A DNA stretch of 62,791 bases, filler included, from Ionaspis alba (Eukaryota): assembly GCA_964255285.1 (NCBI GenBank). It is 4 parts of 4 records of this genome, joined end to end, with 100 filler letters (N's around TTAATTAATTAA, not from the genome) between each part and the next. Parts side by side here need not be neighbours in the genome. Positions count along the whole stretch, not along the records: positions 1 to 15,684 come from CAXUUL010000367.1; 3 more parts are not named here. One strand, written 5' to 3'. The notes below the pieces were generated by a model that searched no databases, had not been told where the DNA came from, and saw only the letters and a list, made by a program, of their open reading frames with translations. The translations under genes and the position numbers were made by a program. This document shows positions 3,459-47,211 of this stretch, in pieces; the first letter of the stretch is position 1, and every line of letters starts with the position of its first letter.

Positions 3459-5947
3459 TCACTTCTTCGTCGAACCCGCCATCTTGAGCCTCTCGACTGT
3501 ATCCACCAGTGTAGTCACCATCCGTTGCCTCTCCGCCTGGACTTCTTTATTGTTGGTTTGTCCTTTCAAGATCTCCAGCGCCGTCTTGATTTTCCCTAGA
3601 GCCCGTGGGAAGTAGCGGCAAGCTGAAAACAGGTGTTCCTGATCTCGAGGAATTGTGTCCAGTACGTGTCTAGCATATCTGCAGGAATTACATACTGCTG
3701 CCAACTCTTTCTCAATGATCTTATTTTTGGTAAACCAGTTTTCGATAGGCCTCACTATCTTTACGTGTCCGAACTGCTTTTCGATGCTGTCTACAGCTTC
3801 GTTCCAAGGCAAGTCGACAAAAGGATTACCGGTCCGGAACAGATCTTGAGGTACCTTTTCTAGTCCGTTCGACGCGTTCTCAGACGGCTGAGTTTGTTCC
3901 ACTATATGGCTGGTATTGGTTGCAGTCGTGGTGGAACAATCGCTTGGTATTGCGGCTAGAGACTCGCTCGTGCATGTTTTCTTAGTTGACGAAGATACTT
4001 GAGCGGTCCAGCTTGCCAGGATATCGATCTTCTCGGATTCACAGTCTCCAGCCTTCGTGTCGAAAGCAGCCACACTTCGCTCGGCATGGCTTTCTGTAGA
4101 GGCGTCCCCATCGATTTCGTTGGAATGGGAGACTTGCGGCTCAGCATCGTCTTCGTCCGCTCCTCTCTTGTTTCTTGACTCTGGCTGGACACAAACCTCC
4201 GGTCCAGCATCGTCTTCGTCCGCTCCTCTCTTATTCTTTGTCTTTGGCTGGACACGAACTTCCGGTTCAGCATCTTCTTCGTCTGCTCCTCTCTTGTTCC
4301 TTGACTTAGGCTCTGGTTCAGCATCATCTTCGTCTGCTCCTCTCTTGTTCTTTGACTTTTGCTGGACACGATGAACCTTGACTGGCGTGATCTTTGGTTT
4401 CTCTATCTGTGGCGCTTGCAAGGTTCCGACACCAGGAGCGGACCGTCTGACTGGTGCAAATTGCTTCAATTCTGAAGGCGAATTTTTCAACTGCATTGGC
4501 GTCATAAGGTTTAGGCTGATCGCTGGAAATCTCCTCGTAAGTTCTTCCTCAACCACCTCATCCGACACGGTCACCATGGACATTGATGCCTGATTTTCCA
4601 AAATGCTGGATGAAATCATGGGTGGGCAAGAGTCTTCAACTTCCACCTTGCTGGATACAGGGTCCTCAATCTTCATCTCGCCAGCGGGAGGAGGCTCTGG
4701 TGCGAAGGAGGTGTCCATGATCGATTCCGCGCTTATATCAGTATCCCCAAGCGGTGGTGCTAGCTCCATCAAGACTGTCCTGTCTTCGATCCTCAACTGT
4801 GAGAAAAGGTCCGAAAGCATAGAGCTCTCAACACCGCTGCAATCGTGTCGCTCGGAACACAAGTCAACATCTTCGCTATCTTCTTCATCCTTGCCTTCAT
4901 CAGCTTCGTCTTCGTCGCACCAGTCGGATTCTGGGACTTCACGTCCATTGACGAATGCCCGATTNNNNNNNNNNNNNNNNNNNNNNNNNNNNNNNNNNNN
5001 NNNNNNNNNNNNNNNNNNNNNNNNNNNNNNNNNNNNNNNNNNNNNNNNNNNNNNNNNNNNNNNNAGGGACTCCAGAAGCGTTGCGATCTGCACGTTCAAG
5101 CCCCAGATCTAGGGAATGTAAGTATCTTTGTCGAAGACGTCCGTATTGTTTTGAACTTACCTTGCTTTCAAACTTTTGTTCCACCTTCTTTTGTTCTTGG
5201 GCTACAGCTGTCTCAACAGCGAAAGCCAGCTCCTGTTTGCTTGTCTCCTGTGTGGCTTTCAACTGCTCAATCGCATTGTCCCGCTCGCTCCTGAGCACAG
5301 GATTGGCTTCAGCCAATTCTTCTCCTCTCTTGCGAGATACTGTTAGCTCATTCCTAGCTTCGTCAAGCTCTCTCATCCACTTCTCCTTCTCTTTGTGCAA
5401 CGTTTGCACTTCCTGACGTTCGATTTCGATGTTATACCACTTCGAATAAGTCTCAGCTTGACGCTGGCCGTTGCGTCAGTGCTGGTTCAAGAAAAATAAA
5501 GTTCATATTTACAAGGTAATGATTGGCAAGCTCTTCCAGGGCACGATATTTCTTGTCGTGATTTTTTTTCATCGTGAGCATGTTCGTTTCGTACATCGAC
5601 TTCGCTGCTTTTAGGGCTTGCTCGTTGTGGTTTTCGAGCCGTTCCTTTTCAGCCTGGTAACTTCGTGTCAGTCTGGTCCCGTTCATATGGCTTGTACAAC
5701 TTACCTCGTAGGAGCGCTTGAGTTCTTCCCTGTCTCTCTCGTACTCGCTCTGGTCACGTTCATGCTTTGTCTTGAGACTGATGTGGTCACAGTTGTTGCA
5801 CCACTTGGGGTCGTGAATGTCGATGAATTTTGCGGAAATCCATTCTACGACAGAGAGCCGTATCCAACATGCATATCGTGTAAATGAGAGGTTAATACAG
5901 AAAAGCCACAGACTGATCCTGACGAATACTTCCCACAAAGTGGCCAT
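3459..5947 (-). CDS. Hypothetical protein: hydrophobic N-terminus, coiled-coil region, acidic region and internal tandem repeat (spliced, spans an N gap)
   Basis: Consecutive minus-strand ORFs (5453-5947, 4939-5409, 3459-~4964) show heptad-like E/K/R-rich segments and GT..AG junctions. The gap at 4965-5064 prevents confirming that this is a single gene. Confidence 0.55.
4141..4370 (-). repeat. Coding tandem repeat, 4 units of ~51-63 bp encoding (K/E)x(K/R)NKRGADE(D/E)DA(E/G)P(E/Q)
   Basis: Four copies of cagcatc(g/t/a)tcttcgtc(c/t)gctcctctctt are visible on the + strand, all in frame with ORF 3459-5099. Confidence 0.9.
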
Positions 5948-6947: not shown

Positions 6948-7981
6948 TTAGAATTCTATGGTTTGTCTTATGCTATCATAAATTCCTGTAGTACCAGTTG
7001 TCAGCTAGTACCAATATGGACCATGTTCGAAGGGCTTACTTGTCACATCAGGAATATTGAATCTTTCATACACCAGTCCCATGTGTGTACTCCAACCCGC
7101 AACTCTCCGCACTGGGGCCTCAAGCCTCAGAAAGGCCCCTTCCTGTATGCTAGCAGCTACCTCAGCTCCGACTCCAGCATTTACCATGCTTTCGTGCACA
7201 ACGACTGCTCTGCCTGTCTTGTGNNNNNNNNNNNNNNNNNNNNNNNNNNNNNNNNNNNNNNNNNNNNNNNNNNNNNNNNNNNNNNNNNNNNNNNNNNNNN
7301 NNNNNNNNNNNNNNNNNNNNNNNATGAGTGAACAACGACTCTGGCGACTGCGAATGATATCTTTCCTAAGATCAGCTGCATTCCTATACTACAACAAAGG
7401 ACTACATACAAAGCGCCATGTCCCACTCCACCGCAGGGCATCCTGACCACCAGTCCGCCGACATTACCACCCGTAGCCCCCTCCCTAAACCTCCACTTCG
7501 CTGCCTCATTTACCAACTGATCAAAAGCTGGGTATACATAATCCGCAAACTGGATCTCGGCCACGGGTCTCATTCCTTGTGCTGCGCAGCCAATCGCAAA
7601 TCCGACAATACCCTGTTCGCTCAATGGTGTGTTGAAGACTCTTTCTGATCCAAATTCTGTCGCTAGGTTCATGCTGCATCGGAAAACACCGCCAAAGGCT
7701 ACATCCTCGCCAAAGAGCAAGACCCGCTCGTCGCTCCGGAGGGCGTGGGTGAGGGCACTGTTAATGGCTTGGAAGAGGTTGAGCCGGGTGGTGGTGGAGG
7801 ATTGGGGGAGCTCGGGGTTAGAGGAGAGGAGGGAGGACGACGACTGGTGCAGGAGGGGGTGGGAAGAGTAGTCGATGGGGAGGTTCAGGCGGGCGTTTGG
7901 AGGGTGTGTGGAGTAGGTGCGGAGGGCGACGTTGTGAAGGATTTGGAGTGTAGGGAGGGACCGGAGAAGAGGGGAGCGCAT
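6948..7981 (-). CDS. BCKDHB: Branched-chain alpha-keto acid dehydrogenase E1 beta subunit, mitochondrial (middle part lost in gap)
   Basis: Motifs [54 protein letters not shown] and GHGALY are present. The C-terminus reads [29 protein letters not shown], with a last exon [12 protein letters not shown]. The N-terminus is Arg/Ser/Leu-rich like a presequence. Confidence 0.93.
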
Positions 7982-14500: not shown

Positions 14501-15133
14501 TCAAGGTCTCCCAGGATAGCTTCCTTTGCTCCAAACACTCTTATCGTTCTTTGTCGAAGGAATAACATTATACACACTCCTCGAGTTCTTCCACTCCTTC
14601 AGCTGCTCCTCCTTCGATGGAGGATATATCATCTTGTCTATTCCAGTTCTCGTACCGCCCGTCATAGACAGCGACTCCTTCAGATCATCGGGCATTGTCC
14701 CAGGATGGGGGTTGGTGTACCATTTGAAGCCAGGAATCTTGGGATCCGTGTGCCATACAAGGTTGTTCTTCCCACTCCCTCCTTTGCCGTTGGCATTCTT
14801 GCCTTGCTCTTTTGCCATCTTCTTTCCTGCTTTGCCTGGGAGTCTGGTCGCCGCACGACCAATACCTCCAAGGATAGCGCCGAGCTGGGGATCTGGGATA
14901 GCCTCGGCGTATGGGAAAGGGTTACGGCGTTGGAAGCTGGGTGAGGCTCTGGAATCGGGTGGAGCGTATCGGTTGTGGAGGTATTGTGGTTGGGCAAGTA
15001 TGGCATCTCGATGGTACAATGCGTTTGTCATGCCATCTTCGGCGGTACGAGCTTTGTGAAAGCTTCCGGCGAGGACCGTCGAGCTGAAGGTACACACAAC
15101 GGCAAGTACGGCTAGGTGGTTCGGGATGTGCAT
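14501..15133 (-). CDS. Small secreted prepro-protein (210 aa) with signal peptide, Kex2-type sites and an X-P/X-A dipeptide run; effector/toxin-like
   Basis: Intronless ATG ORF with a hydrophobic signal (LAVLAVVCTFSSTVLA), sites LYHR, LHNR and FQRR, then NP-FP-YA-EA-IP-DP and a Lys/Gly-rich segment. Confidence 0.75.
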   Translation of the reverse strand: MHIPNHLAVLAVVCTFSSTVLAGSFHKARTAEDGMTNALYHRDAILAQPQYLHNRYAPPDSRASPSFQRRNPFPYAEAIPDPQLGAILGGIGRAATRLPGKAGKKMAKEQGKNANGKGGSGKNNLVWHTDPKIPGFKWYTNPHPGTMPDDLKESLSMTGGTRTGIDKMIYPPSKEEQLKEWKNSRSVYNVIPSTKNDKSVWSKGSYPGRP

Positions 15134-15684: not shown

Positions 15685-15784
15685 NNNNNNNNNNNNNNNN
15701 NNNNNNNNNNNNNNNNNNNNNNNNNNNNTTAATTAATTAANNNNNNNNNNNNNNNNNNNNNNNNNNNNNNNNNNNNNNNNNNNN
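15685..15784. other. Artificial scaffold-joining spacer (N44-TTAATTAATTAA-N44)
   Basis: Six-frame stop linker flanked by Ns; identical to the spacers at 31412 and 47112. Confidence 0.97.
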
Positions 15785-17958
15785 CCCCCTCATCCCTCTG
15801 TTCCTCCGCCCTCCTCTCCCTAGCCCTGACCGCCGCCTGAAAACTCGCCTCATCATGCACCCTCTCATCCGCCAACGCCTCCATGATCGCCTCCTGGCGA
15901 CATCGCTCCTTCGCCTCTTCCTTCGTCTCCTCCTTAACAGCCCCATCGTGCCCGGGCAGCGGTGCGGGCGTGCACAGCGTTTCCCAGGACTGGGAGAGCC
16001 CGAGCCAGTTGTGTCCGCGCCGGATGATCTCGATCCAGTCGGCGCGGCTGGGCGAGCGGGCGGCCAGGAAGATGGGGTAGCCGTCGCAGACGCGGGCGAG
16101 GCGGGCCACCATGTGCGCGTGTCGAAGGTGCTCTTTGGGGGAGGTTTGCATTAGGGTGTGGCAGAGGAGGAGGGAGTGCAGGGCGTCGGTCAACAGGGGG
16201 TGGTAGGTTATTGCTTCGTGTCTGTCTACTGAGCTACTGGCGAAGCTGTCGGTGCCGTTGGTAGAGGCTGTCGGGTTGCGGGTCACGAGTGCCTGGGAGG
16301 TGGCTGGGTAGGGTGGGAGGTCGTCGATTGGTGCTGAGGAGAAGAGGGAGGATACTTGATAGACTTTGGGCGTAGGAAGATTTAGGTGCTGGTCGAAAGT
16401 GCCTGTGAAGTTGTGGTCGTGGCTGAAGCCGTTGGTGTTGCTACCAGTGTGCACGAGCGCGTCGGAGAGATTGCCGTGGCTCAGTGTGGAGTTGCTGGAC
16501 ATCTCGAGCAGTCTGTTCGTGGGCTGTTGTTTTGGCTGTGACGCACCTTGTGCCGCGGCTTTTACTTTGCGAAAGAATTCCTCCGTGACGGCGTAGGGTA
16601 GTCCGGGGGTGTAATCGAGATGGGAGAGAAATCCGAGATAGTCCTTCAGTGCACGCTTTGCGTAGGTCTTCACGAGCTTGCGTGCCCGTACACTTGCTTC
16701 GGTTGCCTCGCTCTTCTCAGAGTTCAGGTCAGGAGATGATTCCTCCTGATCTGCAAGTGCAGTTGTGTTCTCCTTGACTTCGGAACTTGCTGTAGCACTA
16801 GCGAGAGCGTCATCGACGTGTTGACAGGCAAGAGTTAAGTAGACATTTGCACGATGAAACAGCAGCTGTGGCTCCAAACTGGCCGGCTTGTCCTCCTCCG
16901 CAATGATGCCGCCGTATTTTGAGCCATCTGCATCCCCATTCTTTCTCTCAGCAGCACCCAAAGCATTTGCCAATTGCAATTGACCGCGACCCGCCTTGTG
17001 CTGATTGTTTGTATATCGGCAGACGGCCAATGCCTCCGTCAAATCTCGTACAGCTCCCAAATGGTCATCTTTGAATATTCGGGTCACAGCTCTAGTCCGT
17101 AGTGGTGCACCTTCCGTAGGTCTCTCGTGTATGACTTCATCCAATGGCGTGAGACTAGTCGATTGAGCAAGCATCCTGGAAGGGATCTTCTCGTGGAAGA
17201 AATGAACGTACTTGGCGTCTGTGTCTTCCGGATTCCTCTGAAGAACCAGTTTCGCCACATCCTCTAGCGACGATGCAGATTGCATGGTAGCCACACTCGC
17301 CGCAATTTCGTCTAAATGATATGCTTCTGAAAGCTTTTGCGTGGCCAGCTCCCGCATTCGATGCTTCCTCTCCCTGCTTAATTTTGCATTGCCTCCGCCA
17401 TTCCTTCCCAGACCAAGTACGTTGGCACCTCCACCGCCCAGAAGCCCGTTTCCAGCATTCAGAGAATTGTTCAACGATGAAGATGTGGTTCCATTCGCTG
17501 CGCGTACAGCCAGATTGGTTGCTTCCTCAACAAGCCGCCGGACTCTGACCAGGTCAAAGAAGACTGCGGGATCGATTGGATGAGGCCGTGGGGAAACATA
17601 GTTACTGTATGCCAGCGATTCAAGCACTTCGGGGGGTAGCTGGAGCCAAGGTCCATGGAAGGACGAAATGTAACGCCAGTGTCTATTGAAGTATTGATAA
17701 GTCCCTGAACTTTGTCCGCTGGCTGCTGAAGCATATGGAGATTGCTCACTTGTTGCGACATATAATCAAGGCTGATGTTGAAGGCTCAATGGCTTTAGAT
17801 GAGGTCGGTGCGGTGGTAGATGAAGCAGATGCTGTGCTACTTGGTGTTCTCGGACTTCCTGGCAATGAGGGTTTAGAAGAATTCGATGCTGCGATAGGTG
17901 AAGGCGAGGTTTCGCTATTGGGCTCCCCAGCACCACGGCCCTTCTTCTTTTTGGTCAT
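15785..17958 (-). CDS. Conserved fungal hypothetical protein, possibly TPR-like helical (family often labelled 'histidine kinase group protein'); 3' truncated at scaffold end
   Basis: Exon 1 MTKKKKG...SALIICRNK is followed by an intron (~17684-17747), then HWRYISSFHGPWLQLPPEVLESLA..PIDPAVFFDLV and GYPIFLAARSPSRADWIEI. No H-box or ATPase motifs are visible. The family label is from memory. Confidence 0.75.
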
Positions 17959-38783: not shown

Positions 38784-40403
38784 ATGGCCGAGAACAAGCA
38801 CAAGCGTTTGATAGTGGCATGCGATGGTAACAATCTGCCCCTGTCTTCGAGTACTATCGGCTGTTGCATTGCTAACCCAGGCTAACAGGTACATGGATGG
38901 TAAGCACGTCGTCGACAGTTGGCAGGTAGCTGCAACTGGCTAAGTCTTACCAGGATAGTGACAACGGTTTTGAGAAAGATTCTATGTTACCATGGAAGAA
39001 AGATGGCCATCTCCAAGTCCCTTCAAACGTCACTCGGATAGTCCGTGCCCTCCGTTCCGAGGCCGCAGGCGACATCCCTCAAGTTGCGTACTATGAATCT
39101 GGTATTGGGACGGAGAACAGTGTCTATGACCACGTGATCGGTGGTGCAACTGGTCTGGGAATGTCCGAGACCATTCGGTCAGGCTACAACTTTCTCGCAA
39201 CAAACTACGAGCCAGGAGACGAGATCTTTCTGATTGGCTTCTCTCGGGGTGCTTTCACTGCACGAAGTATTGCCGGCTTGATCTCGTCCATCGGGCTGTT
39301 GACCAGAAAGGGCTTGGTTGATTTCTATCCAATTTTCAAGGATTGGGAAAACCAGCTTCAAGATGACTACAAAACTCTGTGGCCAGACCAGCCATATGCC
39401 AATAGACCAAAGATCACAGATCCATCATATTCAGCCAAGCTCAAAGAGGTAGGTTCTATACTGTTGTTACTCCTTGCGGATTTATTCTCATGCTGACCTC
39501 TACCAAAGCTGGGGTTGACTAGGCTCAACATCCCTATCAAAGCAGTTTGTGTGTGGGATACAGTCGGTCAGCATCCACCAAGTGATCGAAGAAGTCCTCA
39601 CCTACTAACACCCATTTCCAGGTTCCCTCGGTATCCCCGATACTGGTCTCTGGCCCAAACCCGTCTCCGAATACGCCTTCGTCGACACCGCCGTCTCCGC
39701 CAATGTCGAATACGCCTTCCAAGCCCTCGCTCTCGACGAACACCGCAAGCCCTTCTCCCCCACCATCTGGGAGAAGCCCGCCGGCCAAGTCCTTCCCAAA
39801 GTTCTCAAACAATGCTGGTTCCCAGGCGTACACTCCAACATCGGGGGCTCCTACCCGGACACCGGCATCGCGGACATCACCCTCGCATGGATGATGTGTC
39901 AATTGCACCCGCTCCTCGAGTTCGATCCCGATTATCTGAACTGGCAGCAGCAACTTCACACCGCCTATTACGGCAAGCTGAAACCGCCACAAGACCCCCG
40001 ACCTTGGGGAATGGGTAAGCTGTATAATTCTAAGACCGGTTTTCAGCGCCTGTCTGGCACGGCGATCCGTACGCCCTCACAGTACGTTGCCGCGAATCCC
40101 AAAACCGGCGCGCCGACAGGTCGTAGGTTGAGAGAGACGAACGAGCATGTGCATATTAGTGTCCGAATGCGGCTTGCACTGCACGGGCTTGGGACGGAAG
40201 ATGCGCCGAAGTATGAGCCCGAGGCGCTGAAGGATTGGAAGCTTGGTCGTGGGCAAGCTGCAGGTAGAAGTGGGTATTCGTGGACGAAGAAGGATGAGAA
40301 GGGAGTGTTGTTGGAGATGCCGGAGGATGGGTTGGGAGATATGGAGATTGAGCTTTTGGAGAAGAGTCCGGACATATATAAGCAGGTCATGGCTGATCGA
40401 TAA
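38784..40403 (+). CDS. DUF2235 (Tle1-like alpha/beta hydrolase) protein
   Basis: KRLIVACD|GTW (11-nt micro-exon at ~38889-38899), SNVTRI, IFLIGFSRGAFTARS, VWDTV|G, ALALDEHR and WFPGVHSNIGG are present. Confidence 0.9.
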
Positions 40404-47111: not shown

Positions 47112-47211
47112 NNNNNNNNNNNNNNNNNNNNNNNNNNNNNNNNNNNNNNNNNNNNTTAATTAATTAANNNNNNNNNNNNNNNNNNNNNNNNNNNNNNNNN
47201 NNNNNNNNNNN
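47112..47211. other. Artificial scaffold-joining spacer
   Basis: N44-TTAATTAATTAA-N44. Confidence 0.97.

Follow-up and report, generated by a model that had tools for sequence, protein, structure and literature searches.

A small fungal family of secreted precursors, represented in Ionaspis alba, with conserved Kex2-type sites and a dipeptide spacer that points to Ste13-type maturation

A stretch of 62,791 nucleotides from Ionaspis alba (GenBank assembly GCA_964255285.1; below, the window) carries at 14501..15133, on the minus strand, a gene whose product, P0001, has the layout of a secreted precursor, with three Kex2-type cleavage sites and a run of six X-Pro/X-Ala dipeptides ahead of a basic protein. 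The locus is a real gene for a pre-pro-protein in a small unannotated fungal family, and the signals conserved in the sequences of that family support a fixed N-terminus, reached by Kex2 cleavage and then trimming of the Ste13 type. The best overall explanation, which we regard as reasonably likely, is a pre-pro-protein of staged maturation whose N-terminus would act outside the cell. Judged by comparison with its relatives, P0001 is a member in which the N-terminal segment and the putative cut sites are preserved and most of the remainder has been given up.

A protein-coding gene with relatives in other fungi

The open reading frame (ORF) runs without interruption from ATG to TGA (14501-14503) over 210 codons in a single exon, and the relatives match only this frame. 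Under a codon model built from conserved exons nearby, its score is 0.173 per codon; none of the other five frames exceeds 0.043, and neighbouring exons held out of the training lie at 0.10-0.14. Taken by themselves, the last 96 codons reach 0.202 in frame, against -0.08 or less out of frame. A chance ORF is rejected because of this codon score and the existence of homologs. An antisense ORF of 177 amino acids (aa; 14526-15059, plus strand) spans nearly the whole gene; it was considered as the gene in its place and discarded, plus-strand coding scores being -0.12 to 0.04 against 0.173, and is most likely a chance open frame. When the window was searched by tblastn with all 12 family proteins, the P0001 locus was the sole match, with no paralog within the window. 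Among three sequencing runs examined, one contains the identical stretch and may be where the window comes from, another low-depth pieces with one letter different, and the third lacks it; the runs are uninformative on expression or variation.

An earlier note on this DNA had called P0001 an orphan, a description that has to be abandoned. A phmmer search with P0001 against 1.84 billion representative proteins returned P0002-P0004 at E values of 5.5e-5 to 1.6e-4, and a profile of these four sequences recovered at least 10 proteins at E<=0.01, the query included, among 8000 scored candidates, seven of them new (P0005-P0011). A nine-sequence profile added P0012, with P0004 and P0005 not among the matches listed. 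The family therefore counts at least 12 members (P0001-P0012), that is at least 11 relatives of P0001, none of them annotated. Eight of the 11 relatives come from ENA/JGI and have an ascomycete-type layout, and the other three are 'hypothetical proteins' from Agaricales, of which Agrocybe pediades contributes two that are nearly identical and Ephemerocybe angulata one. We refer below to P0001 and the eight as the ascomycete-type set (n=9) and to the three as the basidiomycete set (n=3). P0008 (298 aa, on a contig of 1366 bases) and P0010 (219 aa) have tails that fail to align with P0007 and P0011, the closest relative of each; both tails have the look of a run-on or a frameshift in the gene model and not of a genuine extension.

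The earlier note recognised no known family, and this holds, as no significant Pfam, PDB or fold match was obtained. Pfam gave no family at E<=10 for P0001 and no domain for the other 11 members (best match E 0.03); one relative matches the Pfam family Moricin at a non-significant E of 0.33. Sequence and profile searches of PDB had no match better than E 0.64, a word-index search with P0001 found nothing beyond P0001 itself, ESM Atlas queried with P0001 and P0002 gave no usable match, and a cluster look-up held no names for P0001-P0004. Scanning JGI metagenome contigs with the family profile produced 596 pattern matches and no confirmed locus. Four family motifs had no match in the full-text literature, with subscription journals and supplements outside its scope, and the family appears undescribed in that searched literature.

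Signal peptide, pro-region and dipeptide spacer

P0001 begins with a predicted signal peptide (aa 1-22; 15068..15133, minus strand, as are all features of the gene), composed of MHIPNH, a hydrophobic core of 10 residues (LAVLAVVCTF) and SSTVLA, followed by GS. It was judged by eye: VLA ahead of GS fits the -3/-1 rule, and both the M-H start and the hydrophobic core are also present in relatives. The sole Cys of P0001 is C14, within this signal peptide, in agreement with the earlier statement that the part after the dipeptide run has no Cys.

The pro-region (aa 23-70; 14924..15067), with a net charge of +3, contains three Kex2-type sites, identified from the sequence and from relatives. The first, LYHR (aa 39-42; 15008..15019), is followed by D-A and has a counterpart in all nine ascomycete-type members; the second is LHNR (aa 52-55; 14969..14980), where relatives carry LEAR, LASR, LAAR, LEAR and ARR; the third is FQRR (aa 67-70; 14924..14935), whose R69-R70 column is invariant in the four-sequence alignment. 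Exactly after this Arg-Arg begins the spacer NP FP YA EA IP DP, or NPFPYAEAIPDP (aa 71-82; 14888..14923), which we propose as a substrate of a Ste13-type dipeptidyl aminopeptidase (DPAP) and whose register is kept in relatives. A run of at least six consecutive X-[PA] dipeptides arose in 0.368% of 100,000 shuffles of P0001 aa 23-210. Directly after the spacer comes QLGAILGG (aa 83-90). The ORF, the signal peptide (by inspection), the three sites, the six dipeptides and this octapeptide all lie where the earlier note had placed them.

Conservation of the processing signals

The arrangement around the final site can be followed through the whole ascomycete-type set. In P0001, FQRR is followed by NP FP YA EA IP DP and then QL. 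The eight relatives have VLRR with the spacer SA LP EP YP (P0002) or NA LP EP YL (P0006), LAKR with DA LP EA SP (P0007), ASTR with DA LS EP LP (P0008), LKRR with DA AP EP (P0003), LRRR with DA AP AP (P0005), LARR with DA IP EA YP QP (P0004) and LQRR with AA LP SP (P0009); the next two residues are QL, except for LL in P0008 and QV in P0009. Thus [KR]R stands immediately before the spacer in 8/9 members and Gln directly after it in 8/9. The spacer has an even number of residues in all nine and occurs in four lengths (12, 10, 8 and 6 residues), the pattern expected if residues are gained or lost two at a time. X-[PA] accounts for 34 of the 36 spacer dipeptides, against a family frequency of P+A of 0.18, and the P0001 spacer is the longest and cleanest of the family, with 6/6. 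A Pro following the dipeptide would block an enzyme of the dipeptidyl peptidase IV (DPP-IV) type, and no spacer dipeptide in the ascomycete-type members has Pro next. The combination of Kex2 and dipeptidyl-peptidase processing that the earlier note had read from P0001 is borne out by these homologs, which retain both the basic pair and the even X-P/X-A run.

The upstream L/FxxR sites, also part of that reading, have counterparts in relatives as well. An R-ending [LIV]xxR or dibasic site lies 22-28 residues upstream of the final site in all nine ascomycete-type members, and a middle LxxR or dibasic site is retained in six of the nine, as read from the alignment.

The pro-regions of P0003, P0005, P0007 and P0009 (4/9 ascomycete-type members) contain, at about aa 49-60, an upstream Kex2-type site followed by two or three X-A/X-P dipeptides of their own: KR with DA AA NA, KR with DA WA DA, RR with DA FA, and RR with SP LA EA. 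A Y-[VLM]-x-x-x-L block recurs between the pro-region sites; in these four it has the conserved form Y-[VM]-x-x-x-L and follows the upstream run. The pro-region of these four members may be trimmed too and could yield a defined small peptide.

The basidiomycete members reach the same N-terminus with an LxxR placed directly before it, LESR then QLFALL in two and LDAR then WLGMLL in one, with AP-TP-AP or AP-IP-EA ahead of this LxxR, directly behind the signal peptide. With two routes, RR plus spacer and LxxR, leading to one N-terminus, the exposed N-terminus seems to be what selection keeps.

Predicted maturation route

The processing scheme, involving signal peptidase, a Kex2-type and a Ste13/DPAP-type enzyme, is one we consider probable. 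Signal peptidase would cut near A22 and G23, and in the late secretory pathway a Kex2-type convertase would cut after LYHR42, LHNR55 and FQRR70 (up to three sites), so that the pro-region would be removed. A Ste13/DPAP-type dipeptidyl aminopeptidase would then take off NP, FP, YA, EA, IP and DP one by one and would stop at Gln83-Leu84, because Leu in second position makes this pair no substrate. The expected product is a 128-aa protein with Gln83 first, and this Gln may cyclise to pyroglutamate, the weakest step of the scheme. The individual activities have precedents: the accessible part of PMC8528282 gives KR, RR or LxxR as sequences after which Kex2 cleaves and treats pro-domain processing of fungal effectors, and the accessible part of PMC6339444 describes XA/XP dipeptides after Kex2 sites as the STE13 signature, removed by Ste13.

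The N-terminal segment of the mature protein

The predicted mature P0001 (128 aa, 13.9 kDa) is strongly basic, with a net charge of +12 and an isoelectric point of 10.0, and has no Cys. To compare its regions, we used pairwise identities among ten non-redundant relatives and of P0001 against those. The best-conserved region of the family is formed by the first ~34 mature residues (63% among relatives, 58% for P0001), followed by the spacer (53% and 47%) and the C-terminal domain (46% and 18%); the signal peptide (29% among relatives), the pro-region (22%, P0001 10%) and the linker (21% among relatives) are lower. In P0001 the conserved mature N-terminal segment is aa 83-114 (14792..14887), QLGAILGGIGRAATRLPGKAGKKMAKEQGKNA, with a net charge of +6 and seven Gly.

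Across the family the segment reads Q-L-x-hydrophobic-L-G-G-A-L-R-G-x-G-K-G-x-S-K-x-P-E-K-A-G-x-K-x-A-K-E-Q-G-K-N, the P0001 version being four residues shorter, and its order is helix, Pro hinge and then the KAGKKMAKEQGKN motif. The Eisenberg helical moment of the first 18 mature residues is 0.33-0.61 and exceeds that of shuffles (p<0.05) in 8/11 members; for P0001 the moment is 0.47 and the mean hydrophobicity (H) 0.24, with a shuffle p of 0.016. A PDB search with aa 83-114 found no chain at E<=10, with the limit that short peptides are hard to relate by sequence.

A divergent C-terminal part

The C-terminal part of P0001 (aa 115-210; 14504..14791) is divergent, and alignment, identity and a profile hidden Markov model (HMM) suggest that it is a faint but collinear remnant of the two-Cys helical domain of the family. 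The two Cys are present in all 11 relatives; P0001 is the sole member of the 12 without them and has Thr and Met at the aligned positions. With an HMM of the C-terminal block built without P0001, the protein scores 5.1 bits, which 3 of 2000 shuffles also attained, over the stretch ESLSMTGG...PPSKEEQ. The ~100-aa basic C-terminal domain of the earlier note is present as a C-terminal part, which appears to be a degenerate copy of the two-Cys helical domain.

The AlphaFold2 models differ accordingly in their confidence, given as the predicted local distance difference test (pLDDT). For P0001 the mean pLDDT is 50.1, with aa 63-170 below 50 and the C-terminal part at about 40, and prolines stand where relatives carry the first helix of the domain. 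P0002 has a mean of 63.1, and its aa 117-205 form four helices with pLDDT of about 66-86 that enclose the two family Cys. With the P0002 model, Foldseek gave no match at E<=0.001 (14 at E<=10), and VIA-align against 48,161 chains gave four at Z>=5, of which the best had Z 5.9 over 49 residues, below the bar for helical models; no chain attained Z>=8, and the matches are generic helical hairpins. A PDB profile search for the helical domain gave a best E of 2.3. From the alignments, the state of P0001 looks like a lineage-specific loss of the C-terminal fold.

Possible function and alternative explanations

The functional core would be the free, Gly/Lys-rich and moderately amphipathic N-terminal ~32 residues, the only part of P0001 that appears strongly shared with the family. 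Once outside the cell, this N-terminus would bind a surface or membrane of negative charge, with the protein serving as an antimicrobial or in the interaction with a partner, and the pro-region together with slow dipeptide trimming would keep it blocked inside the producer. A membrane- or surface-active role of the mature protein is a tentative proposal, with the balance of judgement leaning against it. Bolder, and rather unlikely, is the idea that the promelittin strategy is at work in this family, which would then be a class of host-defence or partner-directed fungal proteins not recognised before: a dipeptide-removal timer would unmask a membrane-inserting, glycine-zipper-like and pyroglutamate-capped N-terminus after export. 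In the lineage of P0001 the two-Cys domain would no longer be under constraint, and the N-terminal 'warhead' would be the one effector part still conserved.

A number of observations speak against staged maturation to an outside-acting N-terminus. On the side of processing, two of the 36 spacer dipeptides are off-rule, Y-L in P0006, a unit that would not be trimmed, and L-S in P0008, which in addition has TR in place of a dibasic pair and Leu in place of Gln; the gene model of P0008, on its short contig and with its implausible tail, is doubtful. None of the three basidiomycete members has the RR-plus-spacer arrangement. The pro-region, at +3, is not anionic, unlike many masking propieces. Glutaminyl cyclases of Neurospora are reported, in the accessible part of PMC5241404, to be resident in the endoplasmic reticulum (ER), and a Gln first exposed in the Golgi might then cyclise only spontaneously. 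On the side of function, the helical moment of the first 18 mature residues is not above shuffles in 3/11 members; the segment is Gly-rich and weakly hydrophobic (mean H 0.02-0.30); and AlphaFold2 gives it a pLDDT below 50 in both P0001 and P0002, with a helix of just 6-10 residues. No conserved cleavage site follows the segment, KK being found there in only 6/12 members by reading. The strong conservation of the segment would fit specific recognition at least as well as generic lysis, and P0001, having lost both family Cys and most of the similarity in the C-terminal domain, could be drifting.

In the first of the alternatives the maturation would be the same, and the mature protein would be a specific ligand or binder of a cell-wall polymer, a nucleic acid or polyanion, or a receptor, with the stretch from the Pro hinge to KAGxKxAKEQGKN as the recognition site and the spacer serving mainly to expose the Kex2 site, an effect that is reported of the EA spacers in alpha-factor. 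The pairwise identity of 63% in the segment extends across ascomycete-type and basidiomycete members, with K101, A102, G103, K105, K108, E109 and G111 invariant in an 11-sequence alignment, and the segment is predicted to be flexible, is weakly hydrophobic and is never parted from the C-terminal domain by a conserved cleavage site, all of which would suit a binder. Against this, no target can be named, no domain or fold match in Pfam, PDB, Foldseek or VIA-align suggests binding, and P0001 has lost features of the C-terminal domain yet keeps the N-terminus, so that binding would rest on the segment alone. We judge a specific binder unlikely, though a serious contender.

It is improbable that P0001 is a decaying or silent family member whose processing signals are kept by recent ancestry and which has no functional product. 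The replacement of both family Cys, the C-domain identity of 18% compared with 46% among relatives, the 5.1 bits with the independently built HMM and the pLDDT of about 40 would all be expected of such a copy. The 210 codons are nevertheless uninterrupted, and it is the C-terminal 96 codons that have the highest in-frame score (0.202); the spacer is the longest and cleanest of the family and the N-terminal segment is still 58% identical. With spacer, N-terminal segment and coding score all spared, decay is unlikely to have been so selective.

That the active products are instead small pro-region peptides released between the Kex2 sites, the precursor resembling that of a pheromone or a Kex2-processed repeat protein (KEP) and the large C-terminal product being secondary, is highly improbable: three Kex2-type sites within ~48 residues, the upstream site followed by two or three X-A/X-P dipeptides in 4/9 ascomycete-type members, the recurring Y-[VLM]-x-x-x-L block and the peptide-hormone roles proposed for STE13-signature precursors (PMC6339444, accessible part) favour it, but the pro-region is in our reckoning the least conserved coding part (22% among relatives, P0001 10%), P0001 has no repeated peptide unit and no shared 4-mers or 5-mers, and the basidiomycete pro-region is just ~15 residues long.

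Genomic surroundings

The other genes of the window include a KCH channel, a transketolase-like gene, COX15, a dynamin-like gene, Zn2Cys6 factors, an Asn synthase, PhoD and a permease. Zn2Cys6 and fungal transcription-factor domains, the fungal KCH channel and COX15 amount to the gene content of a filamentous fungus. A cluster for a peptide made by ribosomes and then modified post-translationally (RiPP) or another secondary metabolite was considered as the context of P0001 and ruled out, the neighbours in the window being ordinary genes. The gene next upstream in the window (15729-17765, minus strand) has a product of over 630 aa, for which Pfam gave nothing at E<=0.001; at its 3' end, between it and the P0001 gene, lie two N runs (15685-15728 and 15741-15784). 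In the window, N letters number 864 and form 12 runs, each of 44 or 100 bases (for example 4965-5064, 7224-7323, 15685-15728 and 47112-47155), several of which interrupt conserved genes, so that gene models across N runs are incomplete. At 39609-40403 (plus strand) an exon-sized frame matches the catalytic domain of Tle1-like phospholipase effectors of the type VI secretion system (PF09994, E 1.1e-25).

Significance

In filamentous fungi, descriptions of Ste13-type trimming concern mostly alpha-pheromones and the precursors of repeat peptides (PMC6339444, accessible part). According to the same source, Ascomycota generally reserve the STE13 signature for alpha-type pheromones, so that its presence on a non-pheromone ascomycete protein would be unusual. 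Here the signature stands on a single-copy secreted protein of ~125 aa, in an unannotated family found in Ascomycota-type and Agaricales genomes, and it is in register across four spacer lengths, which provides a comparative argument that the exact N-terminus matters. This is a variant worth recording and no new principle. The prediction that follows is a secreted product beginning with (pyro)Gln-Leu. For the annotation of effectors and secretomes, it means that 6-12 residues can separate the Kex2 site from the mature N-terminus downstream, an offset with consequences for where a tag is placed, for recombinant constructs and for predicting structures. If the mature protein is membrane-active, it would be a fungal counterpart of the insect peptides activated by DPP-IV.

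Comparison with known systems

Fungal effectors with a Kex2-processed pro-domain (K2PP effectors) are typically disulfide-rich. The mature P0001 differs from them in having no Cys, its producer is not known to be a plant pathogen, and there is no sequence or fold relation. The likeness is one of layout: as in SnTox3, ToxA and SIX1/4/6 (PMC8528282, accessible part), a signal peptide is followed by a pro-domain whose end, KR, RR or LxxR, falls in the first half of a small secreted protein that has no recognisable domain, and both give a single mature product and no repeat array. P0001 differs in its three conserved Kex2-type sites, in its conserved spacer of 3-6 X-Pro/X-Ala units and in a final N-terminus that would be set by a dipeptidyl aminopeptidase; the words 'dipeptidyl' and 'Ste13' are absent from the accessible part of PMC8528282. 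At the level of sequence P0001 has the signal peptide (by inspection) and the KR/RR/LxxR site in the first half that mark this class, Kex2 removal and an effector role being only putative.

The second comparison is with yeast alpha-factor, reportedly the subject of work by Julius et al. in 1983. There, as in the KEPs that carry the STE13 signature (PMC6339444, accessible part), a dibasic Kex2 site is directly followed by XA/XP dipeptides, and P0001 likewise has RR and then 6/6 X-[PA] dipeptides. P0001 was considered as a KEP itself and rejected, since it repeats no peptide core in tandem, each of its 4-mers and 5-mers is unique, and the segments between its sites are unrelated. Its product would be a 128-aa protein rather than a peptide of ~10-15 aa, and the spacer comprises up to six dipeptides.

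The propiece of promelittin in honeybee venom is, according to what is said of Kreil et al. (1980), removed stepwise by a DPP-IV-type enzyme, and insect procecropins carry an A-P-E-P propiece. In both, an X-Pro/X-Ala run is trimmed stepwise before a cationic amphipathic segment with a Pro hinge, as proposed for P0001, where such a run (aa 71-82) stands immediately before the predicted mature N-terminus with its register kept in relatives; the six dipeptides of P0001 are closer to promelittin's long run than to the two or three of alpha-factor. Unlike in promelittin, the run follows a Kex2 site and not the signal peptide, and the amphipathic segment stays attached to ~95 further residues and is far less hydrophobic than a lytic peptide. 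With a predicted mature product of 128 aa, there is no free short amphipathic peptide of ~25-40 aa. The melittin-like N-terminus proposed in the earlier note is only an analogy, given the lack of PDB chains at E<=10, the H of 0.02-0.30, the moment of 0.33-0.61 and the pLDDT below 50. A relation of P0001 to melittin, cecropin or moricin is not demonstrable from the sequences, and a melittin-like pro-toxin or antimicrobial role is unproven.

Candidalysin of Candida albicans arises from Ece1, a secreted precursor cut by Kex2 to a membrane-active product. Ece1 is a polyprotein cut at KR sites to short peptides with no dipeptidyl-peptidase step, unlike what is proposed for P0001. By analogy, the precursor described here would work as a K2PP effector does, with a Ste13 spacer attached that recalls alpha-factor in style and promelittin in length.

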